A DNA stretch of 51,868 nt from Gemmatimonadota bacterium. GTDB taxonomy: Bacteria > Gemmatimonadota > Gemmatimonadetes > Palauibacterales > KS3-K002. The stretch covers positions 1-51,868 of the forward strand of contig JBDHJS010000038.1 in NCBI GenBank assembly GCA_039586795.1, given 5' to 3'. The notes under the pieces were generated by a model, which searched no databases, was not told the origin of the DNA, and was given only the letters and a program-made list of their open reading frames with translations. Made by a program: the position numbers and the translations under genes. Positions 16,891-31,635 of this stretch are shown piece after piece (position 1 is the stretch's first letter; each line of letters starts with the position of its first letter).

Positions 16891-18099
16891 ATGAATCCTC
16901 AGGTCGACATCTTCGCCGTGATCGCCATCGCCGGCGCGGGGTTCGTCTCCACGAGCCTGGACAACCTCTTCATCCTGCTCGGTTTCTACGCCAGCCCCGG
17001 GTTCTCGAAGAAGATCTCGGCCATCGGATACCTTGCCGCGGTCGCGGTGGTTTTGGGTGTAGCCTTTGCGCTGGGCGGCGTGGCGGACTTCGCGCCGGCG
17101 CGCTACCTGGGCTACCTGGGGCTGATCCCCATCGCGCTGGGTGTCCAGCAGCTGCTGTCGGTCTTCCTTGTGATGCTTGCCAACAGCGGCGACTCGTTCG
17201 TCGTATACCTGTCGATCTTCGCTGATACGCAGAGCGGGTATGAGCCCGTGATCTTGCTGACGGTGGCGGCGGGGGCGGTGGTGCTGAGCGGATTTGGGTA
17301 TTGGCTGCTGAACCGTAAGGGTGTGTCGCGTTGGATACAACGGGCCGGCAGCTACGTGCTTCCGTTTCTGTTGATCGCTATCGGTGTGTTCGTCCTGCTC
17401 GATACGCGGACCGACACCTACGAGCCATTGCCTGAGGAAGATGTGAGCGAAGCCATGGGTGCGTGGCTTCCTCGATCGAATGGAGGGTCTGATGAAAACG
17501 TTGTGCCTGATCGTGTTGGCGTGCCTGCTCGTCCCGACGGCGGTTTCAGCGCAGAGCTATACATCGCCGGAGGGGGCCCTGAAGGTCGCGCTGGTGAAGA
17601 TGCCGTACACGGGCGCGCGGAACGTAGCGGAGCTATCGGACACCCCGAACTACTTGGAGCAGGGCGGTCTGGAACGGATGCTCGCCGACGGCGGCGTGAT
17701 GTTGAAGCCGATCAGCACGGTGGAGCTGACCTCCGAGGAGCAGCGGGACTACGGCGAATGGCATCGGCTGGGTCTGGCCAACGGCCATCTGGCGGAGATC
17801 ATCGCGGCGAACCGCGAAGAAGGGTACCTGTCGGTGGGGCTGCTGGCGAATTGCAGCTCGTTGATGGGTATGCTGGGCGGATTCCAGCACTCGGGCGCGA
17901 CGCGTCGACCGCTGAGGGTTGGCCTGGTGTTCGTGGACGCGCATGGCGACTTCAACACTCCCGAGACGACGCTGAGCGGGATGTTGGGAGGTATGCCGGT
18001 GGCGGTGTCGGCGGGGATGGCGTTGACAAATCTTCGGCTGAAGTCGGGTCTCGACCCGGCGCTACCCACCCGATACATCGTGATGGCGGCGCTTCGTGA
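16891..18099 (+). CDS. Cadmium-resistance (CadD-like) transporter; homologous part ends near 17420 but the frame stays open to 18099
   Basis: FVSTSLDNLFILL, YLGLIPIALG, LANSGDSFVVY, VLPFLLIAIG motifs. The C-terminal ~220 codons look like shadow sequence over the arginase gene. Confidence 0.65.
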   Translation: MNPQVDIFAVIAIAGAGFVSTSLDNLFILLGFYASPGFSKKISAIGYLAAVAVVLGVAFALGGVADFAPARYLGYLGLIPIALGVQQLLSVFLVMLANSGDSFVVYLSIFADTQSGYEPVILLTVAAGAVVLSGFGYWLLNRKGVSRWIQRAGSYVLPFLLIAIGVFVLLDTRTDTYEPLPEEDVSEAMGAWLPRSNGGSDENVVPDRVGVPARPDGGFSAELYIAGGGPEGRAGEDAVHGRAERSGAIGHPELLGAGRSGTDARRRRRDVEADQHGGADLRGAAGLRRMASAGSGQRPSGGDHRGEPRRRVPVGGAAGELQLVDGYAGRIPALGRDASTAEGWPGVRGRAWRLQHSRDDAERDVGRYAGGGVGGDGVDKSSAEVGSRPGATHPIHRDGGAS

Positions 18100-18478
18100 C
18101 ACGGATCCACTGGAACAGGAGCTGATCGATCGGTCGGAGATCGAGCACATCACGGTGGATGACATTCGAGATCTGACACCGATGATCGATCACCAGATGG
18201 AGCGGCTCTCGAGGCTTACCGATGTCATCTATATCCACATCGATATGGACGTGCTGGATCCGTCCGAGGTGCAGGGCCACTCGCTGAACGTGCCGAACGG
18301 TCCAACGAGCCTGGAGCTGGCGGCGGCGCTGACCGAGATGTTCGAGTACGAGAAGGTGGCGGGGCTGGGTATCGCGTCCACCCCGTCGTTCGAGGATGAT
18401 CCAGGCGGGAAATCGTTGAAGGCGGCGTACAACCTCATCGAAGGGGCGCTGGAAGGTGTGAGGCGCCGTTCGAGATAG
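17492..18478 (+). CDS. Exported arginase/ureohydrolase family protein
   Basis: DAHGDFNT and HIDMDVLDP metal motifs; signal peptide MKTLCLIVLACLLVPTAVSA. Confidence 0.85.
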   Translation: MKTLCLIVLACLLVPTAVSAQSYTSPEGALKVALVKMPYTGARNVAELSDTPNYLEQGGLERMLADGGVMLKPISTVELTSEEQRDYGEWHRLGLANGHLAEIIAANREEGYLSVGLLANCSSLMGMLGGFQHSGATRRPLRVGLVFVDAHGDFNTPETTLSGMLGGMPVAVSAGMALTNLRLKSGLDPALPTRYIVMAALRDTDPLEQELIDRSEIEHITVDDIRDLTPMIDHQMERLSRLTDVIYIHIDMDVLDPSEVQGHSLNVPNGPTSLELAAALTEMFEYEKVAGLGIASTPSFEDDPGGKSLKAAYNLIEGALEGVRRRSR

Positions 18479-19383: not shown

Positions 19384-20610
19384 ATGAGCCGAAGGATACT
19401 GTTGCGTGGGGCCGCCATATGCCTGGCGCTAGCGCTCCCGCTGGGGACGGGTGCGCTTTACGGTCAGGACGACGGCCCGACGTTCAAGTTCAACGGGCAG
19501 GTGCGGCTGCGCGGGGAGCTAGACGGACGGACGACGGGCATCGGCACCGACGAAGCGGTGCTGTCGCGGGTGCGGGCCGGCGTGAACGTGGGTCTGATCG
19601 ATTGGCTGGGCGCCTACGTGCAGATACAGGACGTGAGGGCGTGGGGCGAGTCGTTCAACACGCTGACCGACGCGAGTGCGGACAACTTCGATCTGCACCA
19701 GGGTTATCTCGATCTGTTGTCGGATGACATGTACCTGCGGCTGGGTCGGCAGATCTATGCCATCGCCGACCAGCGCCTGATCGGTTCGGTCGAGTGGAGC
19801 AATCCGGGCCGGTCATTCGATGGCGTGCTGGGCTCCGGGTTGTTTGGCGATGTCACAGCGCAGCTCTATTGGATGAACCTCGTGGAGCGGGACAGTATTC
19901 TCGTGATCGGGCTTGACCCGCAACTGAATGAGGGACTGGACGCTGACGGATGGCTGGTGGGCGGCTTCGCCAGCTACCCGATGCAAGGAGGAGCGCTCGA
20001 GTTGACGGCGGTGCACGATCGCAAGGCGATAACCCGTGAATCGTATACCGTGAATTTGAGGGCGCACGGCAAAGCTGACAACATCATCTACGATGGAGCC
20101 GGCGCTTACCAGTTCGGCGACAATCGGAGCGCGTTTTTCCTGAGCGGCAAAGCGGGATGGGACACGGGAGTCTGGTCGCTGGCCGCGCAGGTAGATTACC
20201 TGTCGGGCGACGAAGAAGGCTCGGACTGGAAGAACGCGTTCAACACGCTGTACGCGACGAACCACAAGTTCTACGGCTACATGGACTACTTCCTCTTGTT
20301 GCCGGCCCAGACCGATGGTGCCGGCCTGGTCGATTTCATCGCGCGCGGTCTGTATCGGTTGCCGAAACAGTGGCAGTTGATGCTCGATCTTCACTACTTC
20401 CAGACGGCGAAGCAGCGGGACGGGATGCGGGGGCTGGGCTTTGAGGCGGATCTGGTTACGCGGAAGCCGATCGTGAAGTACGCGTCGTTGTTGGCGGGGT
20501 TCTCGATCTTTGTGCCGCAAGATCTTGCGACGCAGGTGATTCGGGCGTTTGAGGATGGGAAGGAGACGACGTATTGGGGCTTTGTGCAGTTTAATGTTGT
20601 GTGGAACTAG
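19384..20610 (+). CDS. Alginate-export-family outer-membrane beta-barrel
   Basis: FDLHQGY, LRLGRQ, QRLIGSVEWSNPGRSFDG, FNTLYATNHKFYGYMDYF motifs; signal peptide. Confidence 0.8.
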   Translation: MSRRILLRGAAICLALALPLGTGALYGQDDGPTFKFNGQVRLRGELDGRTTGIGTDEAVLSRVRAGVNVGLIDWLGAYVQIQDVRAWGESFNTLTDASADNFDLHQGYLDLLSDDMYLRLGRQIYAIADQRLIGSVEWSNPGRSFDGVLGSGLFGDVTAQLYWMNLVERDSILVIGLDPQLNEGLDADGWLVGGFASYPMQGGALELTAVHDRKAITRESYTVNLRAHGKADNIIYDGAGAYQFGDNRSAFFLSGKAGWDTGVWSLAAQVDYLSGDEEGSDWKNAFNTLYATNHKFYGYMDYFLLLPAQTDGAGLVDFIARGLYRLPKQWQLMLDLHYFQTAKQRDGMRGLGFEADLVTRKPIVKYASLLAGFSIFVPQDLATQVIRAFEDGKETTYWGFVQFNVVWN

Positions 20611-20868: not shown

Positions 20869-23526
20869 CTACATAGCCTCGAATCGGCCCTGGAAGAACC
20901 GCAGTTTTTCCGGCTCGTAAACGAACTTCAGCCCTTTTATCTCTTCTCTTCTCTCATAGACTCGCTTGATGCCTTCGGCGACTTCTTGCATGTGGTCGTT
21001 GGTGTAAACGCGGCGCGGGATGGTAAGGCGCACCAGCTCGAGGGCGGGCCGGTAGTTTTCGCCTGTTTTGGGGTCGCGGCCCTTTGACACGTTGCCGCGC
21101 TCCATGGCGCGGACGCCGGTCTCCACATAGATCTCGGCGGCGAGTCGCTGGGCGGGGAAGTCGTCCTGATCGATGTGGGGCAGGAAGCGCCGTGCGTCGA
21201 GGAAGATCGCGTGGCTGCCGGGCGGCAGGACGATGGGGATACCGACCTCGATGAGCAGCTCGCCGAGAAACTGGGTCTGCTCGACGCGAGAGGCGATGTA
21301 GCGATCGTCGACCATCTCCTCGACGCCGCGGGCGATGGCGGCGAGGTCGGCGGTGGCCAGTCCGCCGTCGGTGACGTTGCCTTCGTAGACGCGGAGCATC
21401 TCTTCGGCGGCCTGGGCCCACTGGGCGTTCTCGCGGAAGCAGAGGACGCCGCCGATGTTGATGAGGAAGTCCTTCTTGCCGCTCACCGTGCAGCCGTCTC
21501 CGTAGAGCATCATCTCGCGAACGATGTCCCTGATCTTCACGTCGTGATAGCGTGGATCGCGGATCTGGATCATGTAAGCGTTCTCGACGAAGCGCGTCGC
21601 ATCGAAGAAGACGGGGATGCCGGCGGCGCTGCAGTACTCGTAGACCTCCTTCATGTTATCCATGCTGATCGGCTGGCCGCCTGCCATGTTGACCGAATGC
21701 TCGAAGGAGATGTAGGCGATCTTGCTTGCGCCGTGCTCATCGACCAGCGCCTTCAGCTTACCCAGGTCGATGTTTCCCTTCCACTGGAAGTCGGTCGTCG
21801 GGTCGTGGGCCTCGTCGACGATGATGTCGACGAAAACGCCACCGGCCAGCTCCTGGTGCAGCTTGGTGGTGGTGAAGTACATGTTGCCGGGCACCAGCTG
21901 GCCATCCTTGATCATGATCTGGCTGAGGATGTGCTCGGCGGCGCGGCCCTGGTGGGTGGGAATCACGAACTCGTAGCCCGTAACATCGCGGAGTACATCG
22001 ACGAGCCTGAAATACTCTTCGCTCGTCGTGGTACTGGCCTGCACGCCCTCGTAGGCGGCCCACTGGTCGGTGCTCATCGCCGTGGTGCCGGAATCGGTGA
22101 GCAAATCGATGGCGACATCGGCCGAGCGCAGCAGGAACGTGTTGTAGCCGGCGGCGCGTATCGCCTTCTCGCGCTGGCCGCGGGTCAGCACGCCGACGCG
22201 CTCGATCGTGTGAATCTCGTAGGGGAAGGTTTCGAACTCGTAGGTCTCGAGGTCGGGATAGACCCAGTGGTATTCCATCTCATCGCGCCAGGTACCGATG
22301 GTGGTGGGCTGGAGTCCGGTCACCTTGTCGCGCTGTTCGTGCAGGCTGACGATGGCGTCGGCGACTTGATCCAGTTGCTCGTTCATCATCGCCAGCCGCG
22401 GGATCTGTACGGGGACGAGGTTGTCGCGGCTCACCAGACCGGCCGCCACGGCGCGCACGCCGGACATCAGATAGAGGGCGGCGGAGAATGTGTCCTGGGC
22501 GAACGTATCGACGTGCGGCAGGAACTCGTCGGCCTTGATGTAGGCGCCGTCGCAGCCGCGCTCCAACGGTACACCGGCGTCCTTCAGCTGCTGCGTGAAG
22601 CGCTCAGTCTGATGCATCACCCAGTGCACCTCGTCCTCGTCACACATCTCGAGCAGTCCGCGGGCAAAGACCTCCATGGTGCGGCCGGCCATTCCGCCAT
22701 AGGTGTGAAGCCCCTCGAAGACGACGACTTCGTTCATGAACTTCTCGTGGTCGTCGGGGTTGTCGGTGGTCAAGATGCCGCCGGTGGCGCATTTGGGATC
22801 CTGGGCGCCGTCGACCAACAGGATGTGGCAGGTCTTGGAGATCTGCTTCACGATGTCGGCGATCGAACGGTCGGCCTGCCCGGGCTCGTGGCGCTGGATG
22901 TACCAGGCGTTCTCGATCAGCCGCGAGCCGTCACAGATGAGGCGCTTGCCGTACTTGTCGGCCAGGGCGCGCACGGCTCGCAGGTTGTCGAGGCTAAACG
23001 GGTGCTGGCCGTCGGCGAACGCCTGCAGGCCGACGAAGGCGACGCCGCCACCTTCGAGAGTCTCCTCCAGTCTTCCCAGATCCACGTTGCCGGTGAAGAC
23101 GGACTCGTCGTGGTCGCGCATGTCGGGATACTGAATCCCCAGAGGGTCGAGCACATCGAGCTTGGTGCGGGCGTTGCTGGGCAGGATCGATCCAGGCGGC
23201 ACCATAGTTGTGACGACCAGCTTCACGCTTCCCAGATTGTTGTGGGTGGGGCAGATGTAGTGGTGGCCGAGCACGTCCTGTACGGCCTGCTGCAGCGCCT
23301 CGAAATTGCGTGAGCCGGCGTAAGCCTCATCGCCGATGAACTGTCCGGCGAGCTGCTCCTGGCTTACGGCGCCGGTACCCAGCGAGCACATATCGAACGT
23401 GACCTGAGAAGGTGTCAGGTTGAAGATATTGAACTGGGCGTCGGCGAGGCTCTTCTTGCGCTCTCCTAGTGACGGAAAGGAGAGCAGGCGGACGGTCTTT
23501 ATCTTATGCGGCTCGTGGATCGACAT
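20869..23526 (-). CDS. tpl: Tandem (two-domain) tyrosine phenol-lyase / tryptophanase family PLP enzyme, 885 aa
   Basis: C-half has TPL motifs DLLTDSGT, THQGR, GNMYFTTT, DATR, SGKKD, RAMERG, RLTIPRRVY, LRFF. N-half is a second, diverged copy with GDEAYAGS and FEGLHTYGG. Confidence 0.88.
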   Translation of the reverse strand: MSIHEPHKIKTVRLLSFPSLGERKKSLADAQFNIFNLTPSQVTFDMCSLGTGAVSQEQLAGQFIGDEAYAGSRNFEALQQAVQDVLGHHYICPTHNNLGSVKLVVTTMVPPGSILPSNARTKLDVLDPLGIQYPDMRDHDESVFTGNVDLGRLEETLEGGGVAFVGLQAFADGQHPFSLDNLRAVRALADKYGKRLICDGSRLIENAWYIQRHEPGQADRSIADIVKQISKTCHILLVDGAQDPKCATGGILTTDNPDDHEKFMNEVVVFEGLHTYGGMAGRTMEVFARGLLEMCDEDEVHWVMHQTERFTQQLKDAGVPLERGCDGAYIKADEFLPHVDTFAQDTFSAALYLMSGVRAVAAGLVSRDNLVPVQIPRLAMMNEQLDQVADAIVSLHEQRDKVTGLQPTTIGTWRDEMEYHWVYPDLETYEFETFPYEIHTIERVGVLTRGQREKAIRAAGYNTFLLRSADVAIDLLTDSGTTAMSTDQWAAYEGVQASTTTSEEYFRLVDVLRDVTGYEFVIPTHQGRAAEHILSQIMIKDGQLVPGNMYFTTTKLHQELAGGVFVDIIVDEAHDPTTDFQWKGNIDLGKLKALVDEHGASKIAYISFEHSVNMAGGQPISMDNMKEVYEYCSAAGIPVFFDATRFVENAYMIQIRDPRYHDVKIRDIVREMMLYGDGCTVSGKKDFLINIGGVLCFRENAQWAQAAEEMLRVYEGNVTDGGLATADLAAIARGVEEMVDDRYIASRVEQTQFLGELLIEVGIPIVLPPGSHAIFLDARRFLPHIDQDDFPAQRLAAEIYVETGVRAMERGNVSKGRDPKTGENYRPALELVRLTIPRRVYTNDHMQEVAEGIKRVYERREEIKGLKFVYEPEKLRFFQGRFEAM

Positions 23527-27313: not shown

Positions 27314-27425
27314 CGTCGCCAGGCGGTTTTCCGGTCGCTCCTTGATCGGGCATCGGCTCCCGAACATCTTATCTGAGCCCCGGCAACCCAACCAGCGGGC
27401 ATCTCCCCACAGGAGGATCACACGC

Positions 27426-28670
27426 ATGCAGGGTTCGCTAACCATGGGCGCGACCCGGCCCCGGCTGCTCAGTCTGCTCGCCGGTCTGGGAATGATCGTC
27501 TCATCGATTATCACGATCCAACACTACTACGCGGCAAATTTTCCCGAGTCGATCTACGAAGGCACGTTCTGCGATATCAGCGCCTTCTTCAACTGCGATG
27601 GCTCCGCGTTCTCCGTGATCTCGGCGATCGCCGGTGTGCCGCTGGGCTACTTCGGCATGTTCATCGGTTTGATGATCGTGCTGGGCGTGATATTCCCGTC
27701 GGAGCGTTTCGAACGAACGAACAAGTGGCTGTCGCTGATCAACGCTTTGGGCGTCGTGGCCTTGTTGATCTTTTCGGTCTTCATCCTGAAGAGTCTCTGT
27801 CTCTACTGCTCGGGCTTTTACGTTTTCGGGTTCTTCAGCTTCGGCCTCTTCTGGGTGTACGGGATCGATAAGCAGGAGCCGGGCCTCTTCCGCCGCTGGT
27901 TCCAGCCGTCGGTCAAGTACCTGGCGACGTATGGCCTGCTGGCCCTGTTGGGCGCCTACGGATTCGCCGAGTTCACCGGTGCGAAGCGAGATGCGCAGTC
28001 GGGCGGCGTGGCGGCCCGGGTGGTGAAGGAGTTCTACAACCTCGATCTGGTGGAGTGGCCCAGTCATATCTCGCCGTACTGGACGGTGAAGGCGACGGAC
28101 AGCTTCGAGGACGCACCGATCCGTATCGTCGAATACGGCGACCTGCTGTGCTCGGATTGCCTGTACCTCTACGAGCAGCTGAAGCAGCTGAAAGATGAAT
28201 TCGCCGGCAAGGTGAACATCGCTTACCAGATGTTCCCGCTCGAAGCGCAATGCAACGATGTGGTGGAGAAGGATCTGCACCCGGGCGCCTGTGATGTCTC
28301 GTTGATGGCGATCTACGATCCGGCGAAGTTCCTCGAGATCCACGACGAGGTTTACGAGAACTTCCGGCAGGCGCGCTACTCGCGAGAGTGGCAGGCGGAG
28401 CTGGCGGTACGTTTCGATGTGGAAGCCGCGCTGACCGACTCGGCGACGATGGCGGAGCTGCAGCGGCAGATCCAGACGGGCAAGGAATACGAGAAGACGC
28501 ACGAGCGGTACTCGCACGGTATCCGTTCGACGCCCACCATGATCATCAACAACCGTATGATCATCGGGACGCTGCCGTACGAGCAGTTGAGAGCGATCTT
28601 CCAGGCGCTGGTCGATGAGGCGGAGGGCGAGGGGCAGTTCATGGAGAACTGGGTGGACACGGGCCCCTGA
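27426..28670 (+). CDS. VKOR-DsbA/thioredoxin fusion disulfide-formation protein
   Basis: VKOR loop CDISAFFNC and CLYC; C-terminal DsbA-like IVEYGDLLCSDC and GIRSTPTMIIN. Confidence 0.88.
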   Translation: MQGSLTMGATRPRLLSLLAGLGMIVSSIITIQHYYAANFPESIYEGTFCDISAFFNCDGSAFSVISAIAGVPLGYFGMFIGLMIVLGVIFPSERFERTNKWLSLINALGVVALLIFSVFILKSLCLYCSGFYVFGFFSFGLFWVYGIDKQEPGLFRRWFQPSVKYLATYGLLALLGAYGFAEFTGAKRDAQSGGVAARVVKEFYNLDLVEWPSHISPYWTVKATDSFEDAPIRIVEYGDLLCSDCLYLYEQLKQLKDEFAGKVNIAYQMFPLEAQCNDVVEKDLHPGACDVSLMAIYDPAKFLEIHDEVYENFRQARYSREWQAELAVRFDVEAALTDSATMAELQRQIQTGKEYEKTHERYSHGIRSTPTMIINNRMIIGTLPYEQLRAIFQALVDEAEGEGQFMENWVDTGP

Positions 28671-28752: not shown

Positions 28753-30183
28753 GTGTTGCGACGGTTTTTCGTTTTCGGAGCTCTGGCACTGGCCGTACCG
28801 ACGGCCGCAGCAGCGCAGGGCGCCGCGCTGTCCCGGCAGGTGCAAGCGTTCGTCAGCGTGGATGAGCCGGTCGTCGCGCTGATCAACGCACGGGTGATCG
28901 ATGGGACGGGCGGTCCGACGCGGGAAGGCCAGACGGTCGTGATTCGGGACGGAACGATCGTCGAGCTGGGCGCGACGGGAGAGGTGAGCGTGCCCGGCGG
29001 CGCCGAGGTGATCGACCTGGACGGCCGCACGCTGCTGCCCGGCTACGTGATGCTGCATGAGCATCTGTTCTACCCGGTGGGCGGCCGGCACTACAACGAG
29101 CAGGTGGTGAGCTTCCCGCGCCTCTATCTGGCGGGCGGCGCGACGACGATCCGCACGGCGGGGAGCATGAACGCCTACGCGGACCTGAACCTGAAGCGGG
29201 CGATCGACGCGGGGCAGGTCCCCGGCCCGGAGGTTCACGTCACGGGTCCGTACCTGAACGGTCCGGGCCTGCCGATTCTGGGCGTGAAGGCGTTGGAGGG
29301 TCCAGAGGACGCGCGGCGGATGGTGGAGTACTGGGCGGGAGAAGGCGTGACGTCGTTCAAGGCGTACATGCAGATCTCGCGGGCCGAACTGGGCGCGGCG
29401 ATCGAGGAGGCGCACGCGCGGGGTCTGAAAGTGACGGGCCATCTCTGCTCGGTGACGTACCGGGAGGCGGCGGATCTTGGGATCGATGACCTGGAGCACG
29501 GCTTCTTCGCTGCCACGGACTTCGTCGCCGAGAAAGAAGCGGACCGTTGTCCACCGGGCGAGCAGAGGACGGCCTCGCTTCTCGAGTTGGATGTCGATGG
29601 ACCGGAAGCGAAGGCGTTGATCGATCATCTGGTGTCGCGCGGCGTGGCGGTGACGTCAACGATGCCGGTGTTCGAGACTTACACGCCGGGCCGACCTCCC
29701 GCATGGAACGACGTGCTGGACGCCATGCTGCCGGAGACACGGGATCAGTATCTGCGCACGTACTCGCGCATCGCCAGCCGACCGGACTCGCCGTGGACGG
29801 AGCTGTTTGCCAAAGGAATGCAGTTGGAATACGCTTTCGCACAGGCGGGCGGACTGTTGGTGGTCGGCACCGACCCCACCGGCTACGGGGGAGTCGTCGC
29901 CGGGTTCTCGAACCAGCGGGTGGTGGAGTTGTTGGTGGAAGGAGGCTTCACGATCGAAGAGGCGATCAGCATCGCGACGTTGAACGGTGCCCGGTATCTG
30001 GAGATCGAGGACAGGGTGGGTTCGATTGAGGTGGGCAAGCAGGCCGATCTGATAGTGATAAGCGGCGACCCGCGTGAACGCTCCAACGCGGTCCGCAACG
30101 TCGAGTTGGTGTTCAAAAACGGAATCGGATACGACTCGGCGAAGTTGGTCGAGTCGGTGCGGGGCCTGGTAGGCTTGCGCTAG
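28753..30183 (+). CDS. Exported amidohydrolase family protein
   Basis: LLPGYVMLHEH, KVTGH, LEHG, VGTD, GSIEVGKQADL. Confidence 0.88.
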   Translation: MLRRFFVFGALALAVPTAAAAQGAALSRQVQAFVSVDEPVVALINARVIDGTGGPTREGQTVVIRDGTIVELGATGEVSVPGGAEVIDLDGRTLLPGYVMLHEHLFYPVGGRHYNEQVVSFPRLYLAGGATTIRTAGSMNAYADLNLKRAIDAGQVPGPEVHVTGPYLNGPGLPILGVKALEGPEDARRMVEYWAGEGVTSFKAYMQISRAELGAAIEEAHARGLKVTGHLCSVTYREAADLGIDDLEHGFFAATDFVAEKEADRCPPGEQRTASLLELDVDGPEAKALIDHLVSRGVAVTSTMPVFETYTPGRPPAWNDVLDAMLPETRDQYLRTYSRIASRPDSPWTELFAKGMQLEYAFAQAGGLLVVGTDPTGYGGVVAGFSNQRVVELLVEGGFTIEEAISIATLNGARYLEIEDRVGSIEVGKQADLIVISGDPRERSNAVRNVELVFKNGIGYDSAKLVESVRGLVGLR

Positions 30184-30207
30184 CAGATCGACCGGCCGTT
30201 ACCTGAC

Positions 30208-31635
30208 GTGATCGCCCGCCTCGATCTTCTCGATTCAGCCACGGTAGCCGTTGGCTCGCTTGTTTTCTTGGCTCTCGTGTGGGCCGCCGTGGTGTCGTAT
30301 CGAGAGCGAGAGCCGCGAGCGGTTGCTGTCGCGCTGCTGCTGGGTTTGCTCGCGCCTCTTCCTTATTTGATCGTTGGGCTCTCCACGTTTTCGCTCCAAA
30401 CGGCATTCGAAATTGTTCTGCTGTCGGCTACGGGCCTGACCCTTTTTCTGCTGTTCGTGCCGGCAGGTAATCGCCCGGTGATCGGGGATGACACGCCGAC
30501 GACGCGGATCGATGAGCGGGACATCATGTTCTCGCGCAACCTGTTGCTGGAGGGTGAGGACCGGTTCGAGGAGTACTACGCGGCGAACCCTGAGAAGCGG
30601 GCGCTGGACGACGCGTTCAGGGCGAAGCCGGGGTTCCTTGGTAGAAAGGCGACGGCGTACAACGCCTATCATTTCGCTTCTACGGATGCCAGCTTCTGGA
30701 CGATCGAGCAGCTGCGGCCGCACGTGGAAGGGCGACCGGCCCGCAAGCGGGTCGAGTCGGATCCAGAAGCGATCACTCTATACATCAAAGGATGGGTGCA
30801 CAAGCTGGGCGCCGAGTCGGTGGGCGTCACCGAGCTGCGGGACTATCACAAGTACAGCGTCATAGGTCGTGGCACGAAGTACGGCCGACCGGTGGAGCTG
30901 AACCACGATTACGCCATCGCGCTGACCGTGGAGATGACGAAGGCGATGGTCGACCGGGCGCCGCTGGGTCCGACGGCGATGGAGTCCGCCCAACAGTATG
31001 TGGACTCGGGGGTCATCGCGGTGCAGGTCGCTCAGTTCATCCGGCTGCTGGGCTACCACGCCCGGGCGCACATCGATGGCAACTACCGGGTCGTCTGTCC
31101 GCTGGTGGCGCGGGACGCGGGGCTGGGCGAGCTCGGTAGGATGGGGCTGCTGATGACGCCGGAACTGGGACCGCGGGTACGACTGGCCGTGGTGACGACT
31201 GATCTACCGCTTGTCGTTGATGAACGGGTTCCGGATCACTCGATGGTCGACTTCTGCACGCACTGCAAGAAGTGCGCGGAGGTCTGTCCATCGGAAGCGA
31301 TCCGTTTCGATGACAGGCGGGAGGTCGACGGCGTCCGGCGTTGGCAGATCAACCAGGAAGCGTGTTTTACTCTTTGGTGTGAAGTGGGAACCGACTGCGC
31401 TCGCTGTATGTCGGCCTGCCCTTATTCTCATCCCGACAACGCGCTTCATCGACTTGTTCGATTCGGTGTGCGCAGGAACGGACTGTTTCGCAGGCTGGCG
31501 ATTAAGGGCGATGATCTGTTCTACGGAAGGAAGCGTCCGCCGGCTCGACTCGCGGGCTGGCTGAAGATCGAGGAAGCCGCAGGTCCCCAGGACGCGGGAG
31601 GTAAAAATGGCCACGATGAATCAAGCCGTAGATGA
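30208..31635 (+). CDS. Reductive dehalogenase-like cobalamin/Fe-S protein with three N-terminal TM helices
   Basis: RIDERD, FIRLLGYHARAH, ARDAGLGELGRMGLLMTPELGPRVRL, TTDLPL, FCTHCKKCAEVCP, C-X10-CARCMSACP. Confidence 0.8.
   Translation: MIARLDLLDSATVAVGSLVFLALVWAAVVSYREREPRAVAVALLLGLLAPLPYLIVGLSTFSLQTAFEIVLLSATGLTLFLLFVPAGNRPVIGDDTPTTRIDERDIMFSRNLLLEGEDRFEEYYAANPEKRALDDAFRAKPGFLGRKATAYNAYHFASTDASFWTIEQLRPHVEGRPARKRVESDPEAITLYIKGWVHKLGAESVGVTELRDYHKYSVIGRGTKYGRPVELNHDYAIALTVEMTKAMVDRAPLGPTAMESAQQYVDSGVIAVQVAQFIRLLGYHARAHIDGNYRVVCPLVARDAGLGELGRMGLLMTPELGPRVRLAVVTTDLPLVVDERVPDHSMVDFCTHCKKCAEVCPSEAIRFDDRREVDGVRRWQINQEACFTLWCEVGTDCARCMSACPYSHPDNALHRLVRFGVRRNGLFRRLAIKGDDLFYGRKRPPARLAGWLKIEEAAGPQDAGGKNGHDESSRR

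Follow-up and report, generated by a model that had tools for sequence, protein, structure and literature searches.

In PMC10170061, tyrosine phenol-lyase (TPL) is described as a homotetramer of subunits of about 456 amino acids (aa) with one pyridoxal 5′-phosphate (PLP) each. According to the same source, each active site is formed at the contact of two subunits, Tyr71 acts as the general acid, the N-terminal arms interlock the two catalytic dimers, and industry uses the enzyme to make L-DOPA and modified tyrosines. The effects of Tyr71 in TPL vary with the substrate (PMC3870968). For E. coli tryptophanase, PMC2770544 reports that Tyr74 and Tyr307 (the equivalents of Tyr71 and Tyr291) reach into the adjacent subunit, where they bond with the PLP phosphate, and that the arms form a sheet of the non-catalytic, inter-dimer interface. 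Thr124, Met379, Arg381 and Phe448 set TPL apart from tryptophanase, which has Asp137, Val394, Ile396 and His463 (PMC5805759). Here we describe a gene from a Gemmatimonadota bacterium, on contig JBDHJS010000038.1 (the window, that is, the whole stretch of 51,868 nucleotides that was analysed). It probably encodes an obligate pseudo-heterodimeric TPL, in which two unequal TPL domains are fused and one composite active site would be formed per chain.

The closest described enzyme is TPL itself (EC 4.1.99.2; Citrobacter freundii and Erwinia herbicola; PDB 2ez1 and 1c7g), which is the best solved match for both halves of the tandem protein. The PLP residues, the substrate residues and the residues that one TPL subunit lends to its neighbour are all present, once per chain. 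Unlike TPL, however, the protein is an 885-aa chain of two unequal domains with one PLP lysine, in which only every second pocket is complete, and it has Leu in place of the Met288 of characterised TPLs. Because the two-domain subunit departs from the homotetrameric architecture, we file the protein as a TPL variant and not as a plain member. Tryptophanase TnaA (EC 4.1.99.1) shares the fold and the lent tyrosines, and the database label of the tandem protein is often "tryptophanase". In contrast to tryptophanase, the C-half of the tandem protein has Thr552, Met808, Arg810 and Phe877 at the four positions named above.

Comparable architectures exist elsewhere among fold-type-I enzymes. Glycine decarboxylase (P-protein; GcvP/GLDC) is one chain of two fold-type-I domains, the N-terminal one having Gln for lysine (PMC7259800). 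The tandem protein likewise has two fold-type-I PLP domains with the active lysine only in the C-terminal one. It differs from GcvP in family and reaction, and also in that its halves still align with extant single-domain relatives and there are graded intermediates. The GcvP models gave no match: Pfam gave only Beta_elim_lyase, and NCBIfam gave TPL/tryptophanase-type models and one weak aldolase match. The serine palmitoyltransferase (SPT) of coccolithovirus is a natural single-chain SPT2-SPT1 chimera with one lysine (PMC6148460). This enzyme and eukaryotic SPT1/SPT2 resemble the tandem protein in being a fold-type-I pair with one partner lacking the PLP lysine and a presumed single site; unlike the tandem protein, the viral enzyme has the lysine domain first, acyl-transfer chemistry and an unrelated family. 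An earlier reading of the window from its letters alone (the sequence-only reading) had stated that no characterised enzyme has this architecture. This holds within the TPL/tryptophanase family and fails among fold-type-I enzymes, given glycine decarboxylase and coccolithovirus SPT. Literature searches over titles and the beginnings of abstracts, with subscription journals sparsely covered, found no published account of a tandem TPL or tryptophanase. Among solved structures, no tandem TPL/tryptophanase chain was found, and in the ESM Atlas only single-domain TPL/tryptophanase clusters matched.

The gene and its parts in the window are as follows.
20869..23526, minus strand: tandem tyrosine phenol-lyase gene, a single open reading frame (ORF) of 885 aa with two Beta_elim_lyase stretches (Pfam).
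22258..23526, minus strand: N-half, aa 1-423, a TPL domain without the PLP lysine, in which the lent loops and the N-terminal arm are retained.
22228..22257, minus strand: junction, aa 424-433, about 4 residues beyond a plain head-to-tail fusion.
20869..22227, minus strand: C-half, aa 434-885, a PLP- and substrate-binding TPL domain whose lent residues are lost.

The ORF runs from 23526 to 20869 without an internal stop. When the halves were searched separately, the best solved match was Erwinia TPL 1c7g for both the N-half (E = 1e-57) and the C-half (E = 5e-162); the two halves are 28% identical to each other. These results agree with the sequence-only reading, which had placed two TPL-fold copies on either side of a junction near 22235 (about residue 430) without naming a strand. 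Every residue change that it listed is present in the translation: Tyr69, Lys685, Thr552 and Arg810 are in place, Gln242 occupies the lysine position, and Thr499 and Asp720 occupy the Tyr71 and Tyr291 positions.

We kept 80 of 147 genome loci for examination. The tandem protein is a single open frame in 72 of the 80, is cut by the end of the contig or locus in six and is frameshifted in two. Synonymous codon differences exceeded non-synonymous ones in both halves at all six loci compared (for example, 124 versus 54 in the N-half). By these comparisons, the tandem gene is a conserved family and reflects neither chance nor decay. In one homologue (locus L015, around 7310), the gene falls into two overlapping frames because of a single additional base close to the junction, probably a sequencing error; another (L018) is frameshifted near residue 750. 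The frameshift at the junction in L015, together with the many N-half-like proteins shorter than 486 aa, could point to an assembly artefact or to read-through of two separate genes. We give this explanation a negligible probability and rejected it. Full-length homologues exist, 72 of 80 loci have one ORF, most of the short matches carry a "partial" label or sit on short contigs, and a contig from the independent run X18 covers the linker (window 22122-22293) with no differences. The best 120 of 7960 proteins shorter than 486 aa were mostly fragments, and none of them could be identified as an entire, independently encoded N-half of a split two-gene form.

From 8000 candidates of 486-1549 aa, 1701 matches passed, and the best 120 were aligned with the query (the close alignment, 121 rows). 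These 120 are all 858-925 aa long and 75-97% identical to the query. TPL numbering was taken from alignments of the halves to solved TPLs; the key residues, including the PLP core, were chosen partly from published work on TPL and tryptophanase. The residues of the two halves that bear on the live site are listed below; counts refer to the close alignment.
23320..23328, minus strand: Glu67-Ala68-Tyr69 of the N-half (TPL Glu69 and Tyr71); Glu67, which we take to be a cation ligand, and Tyr69 in 121/121.
22801..22803, minus strand: Gln242 in place of the PLP lysine (TPL Lys257); Gln in 120/121.
22672..22731, minus strand: second lent loop, aa 266-285, with Val268, Leu273, His274 and Tyr276 (TPL 283, 288, 289 and 291); all four in 121/121.
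22030..22032, minus strand: Thr499 of the C-half at the Tyr71 position, where the catalytic acid is lost; Ala in 78 and Pro in 16 of 121 rows of this column.
21871..21873, minus strand: Thr552 (TPL Thr124, phenol-specific); 121/121 (PMC5805759).
21472..21474, minus strand: Lys685, the PLP Schiff-base lysine (TPL Lys257); 121/121.
21097..21105, minus strand: Met808-Glu809-Arg810 (TPL Met379 and Arg381); 121/121.
21028..21030, minus strand: Arg833 (TPL Arg404), which presumably binds the substrate carboxylate; 121/121.
20893..20898, minus strand: Phe877-Phe878 (TPL Phe448/Phe449); 121/121 (role in PMC10170061).

When each half was scored against the TPL site, the C-half had 20 of the 20 own-site residues and none of the seven lent residues, and the N-half had 4 of 20 and 7 of 7, respectively. 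In the C-half, the PLP core (Thr49, Gln98, Gly99, Arg100, Asn185, Asp214, Arg217, Ser254, Lys256 and Arg404, together with Lys257) is complete, each residue in 121/121, as are Arg528, Asn613, Asp642, Arg645, Ser682 and the residues Lys685, Arg833, Thr552, Met808, Arg810, Phe877 and Phe878 listed above. The N-half lacks Arg100, Asn185 and Arg404, and the loops of Asn185 and Arg381 are gone; it retains the equivalents of Asp214 and Arg217 (Asp199 and Arg202). Its Glu67, Tyr69 and Tyr276 are invariant in the close alignment, and the four named residues of the second loop are identical in all 62 nearest single-domain TPLs. TPL requires K+ or NH4+, and the predicted cation-ligand positions, which we assume from TPL, are occupied by Gly480 and Asn690 in the C-half and by Glu67 in the N-half.

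The same sorting was seen across all conserved positions. In the 62 nearest single-domain TPLs, 224 positions are at least 95% conserved; 84 of these are kept in the C-half only, 27 in the N-half only and 51 in both, while 27 lean to one half and 35 are kept in neither. Seventeen of the 27 N-half-only positions cluster in the two segments that surround Tyr71 and Tyr291, and another four belong to the N-terminal arm. At all 27 of its positions, the composite site (20 own-side residues of the C-half and seven that the N-half lends) has the consensus residue of the 62 TPLs. These comparisons show, at the level of sequence, that the C-half has every own-side residue that a TPL subunit uses and that the N-half has only what a subunit lends.

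To cover more distant members, we used 123 tandem proteins with about 28-68% identity to the queries; one shorter than 800 aa was dropped, leaving 122. The pattern of the window, a C-half with a complete PLP core (11 of 11) and the specificity residues of TPL, was found in 104 of the 122. Among these 104, the N-half has all four lent residues in 102, Tyr291 is present in the C-half of none, and the lysine column of the N-half is Lys in one (P0254, otherwise 2/11). In the 106 divergent tandems of TPL type, this column is Glu in 53, Gln in 42 and Lys in three. No tandem with two intact TPL sites was found among the 122. The sequence-only reading had proposed gene duplication and fusion, then reciprocal loss leaving one composite site per chain, and had suggested a search for homologues of about 880 aa. 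The proposal is supported by the alignment, by the comparison with the 62 TPLs and by the divergent tandems, and the search recovered the same reciprocal pattern in 121 close rows and 104 of 122 divergent tandems.

Some beta-eliminating domains lack the tyrosine (PMC3870968), and the N-half might on this ground be taken for a mere scaffold or relic, the C-halves pairing as a lyase that needs no Tyr71. We consider this very unlikely, because exactly the lent residues are kept in the N-half (121/121; 102/104) while its own site is lost, and because the residues for C-C cleavage of tyrosine (Thr124, Arg381 and Phe448) are retained in the C-half.

In the pseudo-heterodimeric TPL that we propose, the N-half would dock on a C-half in the manner of the two subunits of the catalytic dimer of TPL. 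Lys685 would bind PLP and take the alpha-proton, Tyr69 of the N-half would protonate the ring carbon, and Thr552, Arg810 and Phe877/878 would hold the phenol ring, so that L-tyrosine would be converted to phenol, pyruvate and ammonia. One PLP per chain is expected. A pair of chains would restore the tetrameric arrangement of TPL, with two of its pockets live and the other two dead, and N-N and C-C pairs should be inactive on tyrosine.

The next question is whether the live site forms within one chain or between two. The former, which the single-chain pseudo-dimer of the sequence-only reading presupposes and which is a special case of our proposal, is how a head-to-tail fusion would most simply be read, with both halves in one frame at 72 of 80 loci, and a monomer could then in principle turn over; we give it somewhat less than an even chance. 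The junction spans 62 residues versus 58 without a linker, which leaves an effective tether of about 4 residues; in the divergent tandems the median span is 68 (n = 95; a tether of about 10). This tether runs straight into the N-terminal arm of the C-half, and arm and tetramer-core residues stay conserved in the tandem. Because a tether of about 4 residues feeds the C-half arm and the arms of TPL interlock the catalytic dimers, we lean slightly to a live site between two chains; in that case, the halves joined by the tether may be arm partners. The arm residues also sort reciprocally: Lys11 of the N-half occurs with Glu14 of the C-half in 220 of 225 proteins, and the mirror pair is mostly lost. 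This fits an N-C arm contact in a tetramer-like dimer of chains. The alignment is too shallow for inter-domain coevolution, its effective number being 93 at 80% identity and 16 at 62%.

The specificity residues are those of TPL: Thr552, Met808, Arg810 and Phe877, the equivalents of Thr124, Met379, Arg381 and Phe448, are each present in 121/121. Thus TPL-type and not tryptophanase-type specificity, as first read from the letters, was borne out. The tandem protein also scores below the cut-offs of TIGR02617 and NF053783. At position 288, which is Met in characterised TPLs, the N-half has Leu273, the same residue as in 62 of 62 nearest single-domain homologues; one single-domain homologue with Leu288, P0179, passes TIGR02618.

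A substituted (for example, halogenated) tyrosine or another aromatic amino acid, instead of L-tyrosine, is an unlikely physiological substrate. The points that suggested it are Leu at the Met288 specificity position, the sediment-metagenome labels of the runs that hold the tandem gene best, and the following gene.
30208-31635, plus strand: reductive-dehalogenase-like gene (TIGR02486 score 160.9, cut-off 160.35), 6.7 kb from the tandem gene.
This gene is the only copy found in the window genome, and such a gene lies in the flanks of the tandem gene at 8 of 80 loci. However, it is on the opposite strand and not adjacent, and the synteny is explained by shared ancestry because all eight loci are close Gemmatimonadota relatives. 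Leu288 and His289 are, moreover, present in 62 of 62 nearest ordinary TPLs. The altered specificity (for substituted tyrosines) that the sequence-only reading had raised is therefore unsupported, because the composite site equals that of the 62 ordinary TPLs at all 27 positions.

The genomes themselves point to the role of the tandem protein. In the bacterial family of the window, a full tandem gene is present in 14 of 24 genomes and a partial match in one; another family of the order has it in 0 of 16. The window genome has a separate single-domain gene with Asp at 124, Ile at 381 and His at 448.
Contig C44 of the window genome (G000), 29362-30747 (locus L082, 1360-2745): single-domain gene of tryptophanase type.
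In all 14 tandem-bearing genomes of the family, the separate single-domain enzyme fetched (one match per genome) is of tryptophanase type, with Asp at 124 and Ile at 381, and no single-domain TPL was among these 14 matches. Among all 20 single-domain matches fetched in this way, the sole one of TPL type comes from a genome without the tandem gene. Because the fetched single-domain enzymes of tandem-bearing genomes are all of tryptophanase type, we infer that the tandem protein would be the TPL of these organisms.

Several points weigh against the proposal of a pseudo-heterodimeric TPL or parts of it. Against TIGR02618 (cut-off 720.7), the whole protein scores 883.3, which is a sum over two stretches; the C-half alone (642.1) is below the cut-off, and the N-half scores 242.5. 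One single-domain match was examined per genome, and further partial matches in two genomes (G009 and G023) were left out. No tyrosine-related neighbour gene recurs across the 80 loci. The covariation of arm residues Glu6 and Arg410 is only partial, and the argument about sites within or between chains draws on a review sentence on interlocked arms and on geometry assumed from TPL. Finally, RNA runs hold only small shares of the tandem gene, as contigs.

The second pocket of each pair, built from the remnants of both halves, has acquired residues of its own.
22792..22794, minus strand: Lys245 of the N-half (TPL position 260), a lysine newly acquired in the dead pocket; 121/121.
21367..21393, minus strand: remodelled lent loop of the C-half, which faces the dead pocket, with Arg712, Asn717 and Asp720 (TPL Val283, Met288 and Tyr291); 121, 118 and 121 of 121.
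Within the subfamily of the window, Arg120 is likewise found in 121/121, Lys102 in 120/121 and Arg496 in 114/121. Near-invariant new polar residues from both halves are what a site for regulation or for a second ligand (an anion, an amino acid or the product) might show. Furthermore, a basic residue at 260 accompanies Arg at 283 in the 121 close and 41 divergent members, and a non-catalytic PLP pocket has been proposed, with low confidence, in the N-half of glycine decarboxylase (PMC7259800). However, the residues are not common to the rest of the family. Among divergent members, a basic residue stands at position 260 in only 41 of 104 and Arg at position 283 in 51 of 106, and position 291 holds Asn, Ser, Thr or Asp. 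Because the close family is 75-97% identical, invariance within it is cheap. Salt bridges that plug the cavity would give the same pattern. Thus, we consider it rather unlikely that the dead pocket became regulatory; such a role is possible, though unsupported, and a salt-bridge plug is equally likely. The allosteric pocket of the sequence-only reading is accordingly not upheld, its charged residues being fixed in the subfamily of the window and variable among divergent members.

Not all tandems follow the pattern of the window. In a second type (16 of 122; P0250, P0251, P0253, P0255, P0456, P0500 and 10 others), both the lysine (16/16) and the lent tyrosines are retained in the N-half. In the C-half, the PLP core including the lysine column is likewise retained, but Tyr291 never occurs and the specificity residues are neither TPL- nor tryptophanase-like. 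Two further proteins, P0436 and P0439, look reversed: the PLP core of the N-half is intact and its lent tyrosines are changed to Phe and Cys, and the C-half has both lent tyrosines and is changed at Asn185 and Arg217. One of these two is labelled as a Chroococcales cyanobacterium. The idea that the linker always kills the N-terminal site is weakened by these two proteins and by the 16 with an N-half lysine. P0267, P0278, P0270 and P0321 contain tryptophanase-like domains within much longer proteins (677-3002 aa), which may be fusions or misassemblies.

In trees, N-halves of the window type group together, C-halves group beside single-domain TPLs and the other tandem types lie apart. An approximately unbiased (AU) test did not reject a single clade of nine C-halves (p = 0.44; 24 of 59 rows had been removed for length or redundancy) and barely rejected a single clade of 11 (p = 0.042). 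Because the clade tests are equivocal and the trees were quick ones, several independent origins of the tandem fusion are suggested rather than demonstrated. By phylum, the 80 loci fall into Gemmatimonadota (48), Acidobacteriota (14), Myxococcota (7), Planctomycetota (4) and four others (one each), with three unassigned; the family thus occurs in at least eight phyla of uncultured bacteria. We put forward, as a conjecture more likely wrong than right by a wide measure, that fusion more than once in the TPL/tryptophanase family gave a living series of half-dead enzymes (window type, N-lysine type and reversed type), and that the freed pocket of the clade of the window (Lys245, Lys102, Arg120, Arg496, Arg712, Asn717 and Asp720) is a ligand-sensing site controlling an inter-chain live site. 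If true, this would provide an allosteric TPL and a tractable model for how glycine decarboxylase and SPT became asymmetric.

The tandem protein would be an unusually clean natural case of an enzyme that splits its labour between two fused copies. Because the single-domain relatives survive together with many of the stages in between, the route from a homo-oligomer to a pseudoenzyme plus an enzyme should be directly testable here, unlike in glycine decarboxylase or SPT. With the lent loops and the main pocket on separate domains, each side may be engineered on its own. Database labels (plain TPL or tryptophanase) hide this tandem family, including the second subtype with its non-TPL pocket.

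The neighbourhood of the gene in the window includes the following.
19384-20610, plus strand: alginate-export-family outer-membrane protein, which converges on the 3′ end of the tandem gene.
27342-28670, plus strand: VKOR-thioredoxin fusion, of the same families as the most frequent neighbour of the tandem gene.
This most frequent neighbour cluster, VKOR-thioredoxin, was found at 14 of 80 loci, which are close relatives. A promoter and terminator scan gave no promoters and two terminator-like sites, which is the chance level. On the plus strand at 16891-18478, a Cad (cadmium-transporter-like) ORF, whose Cad part is possibly truncated or frameshifted, continues in a different frame across an arginase-family gene.

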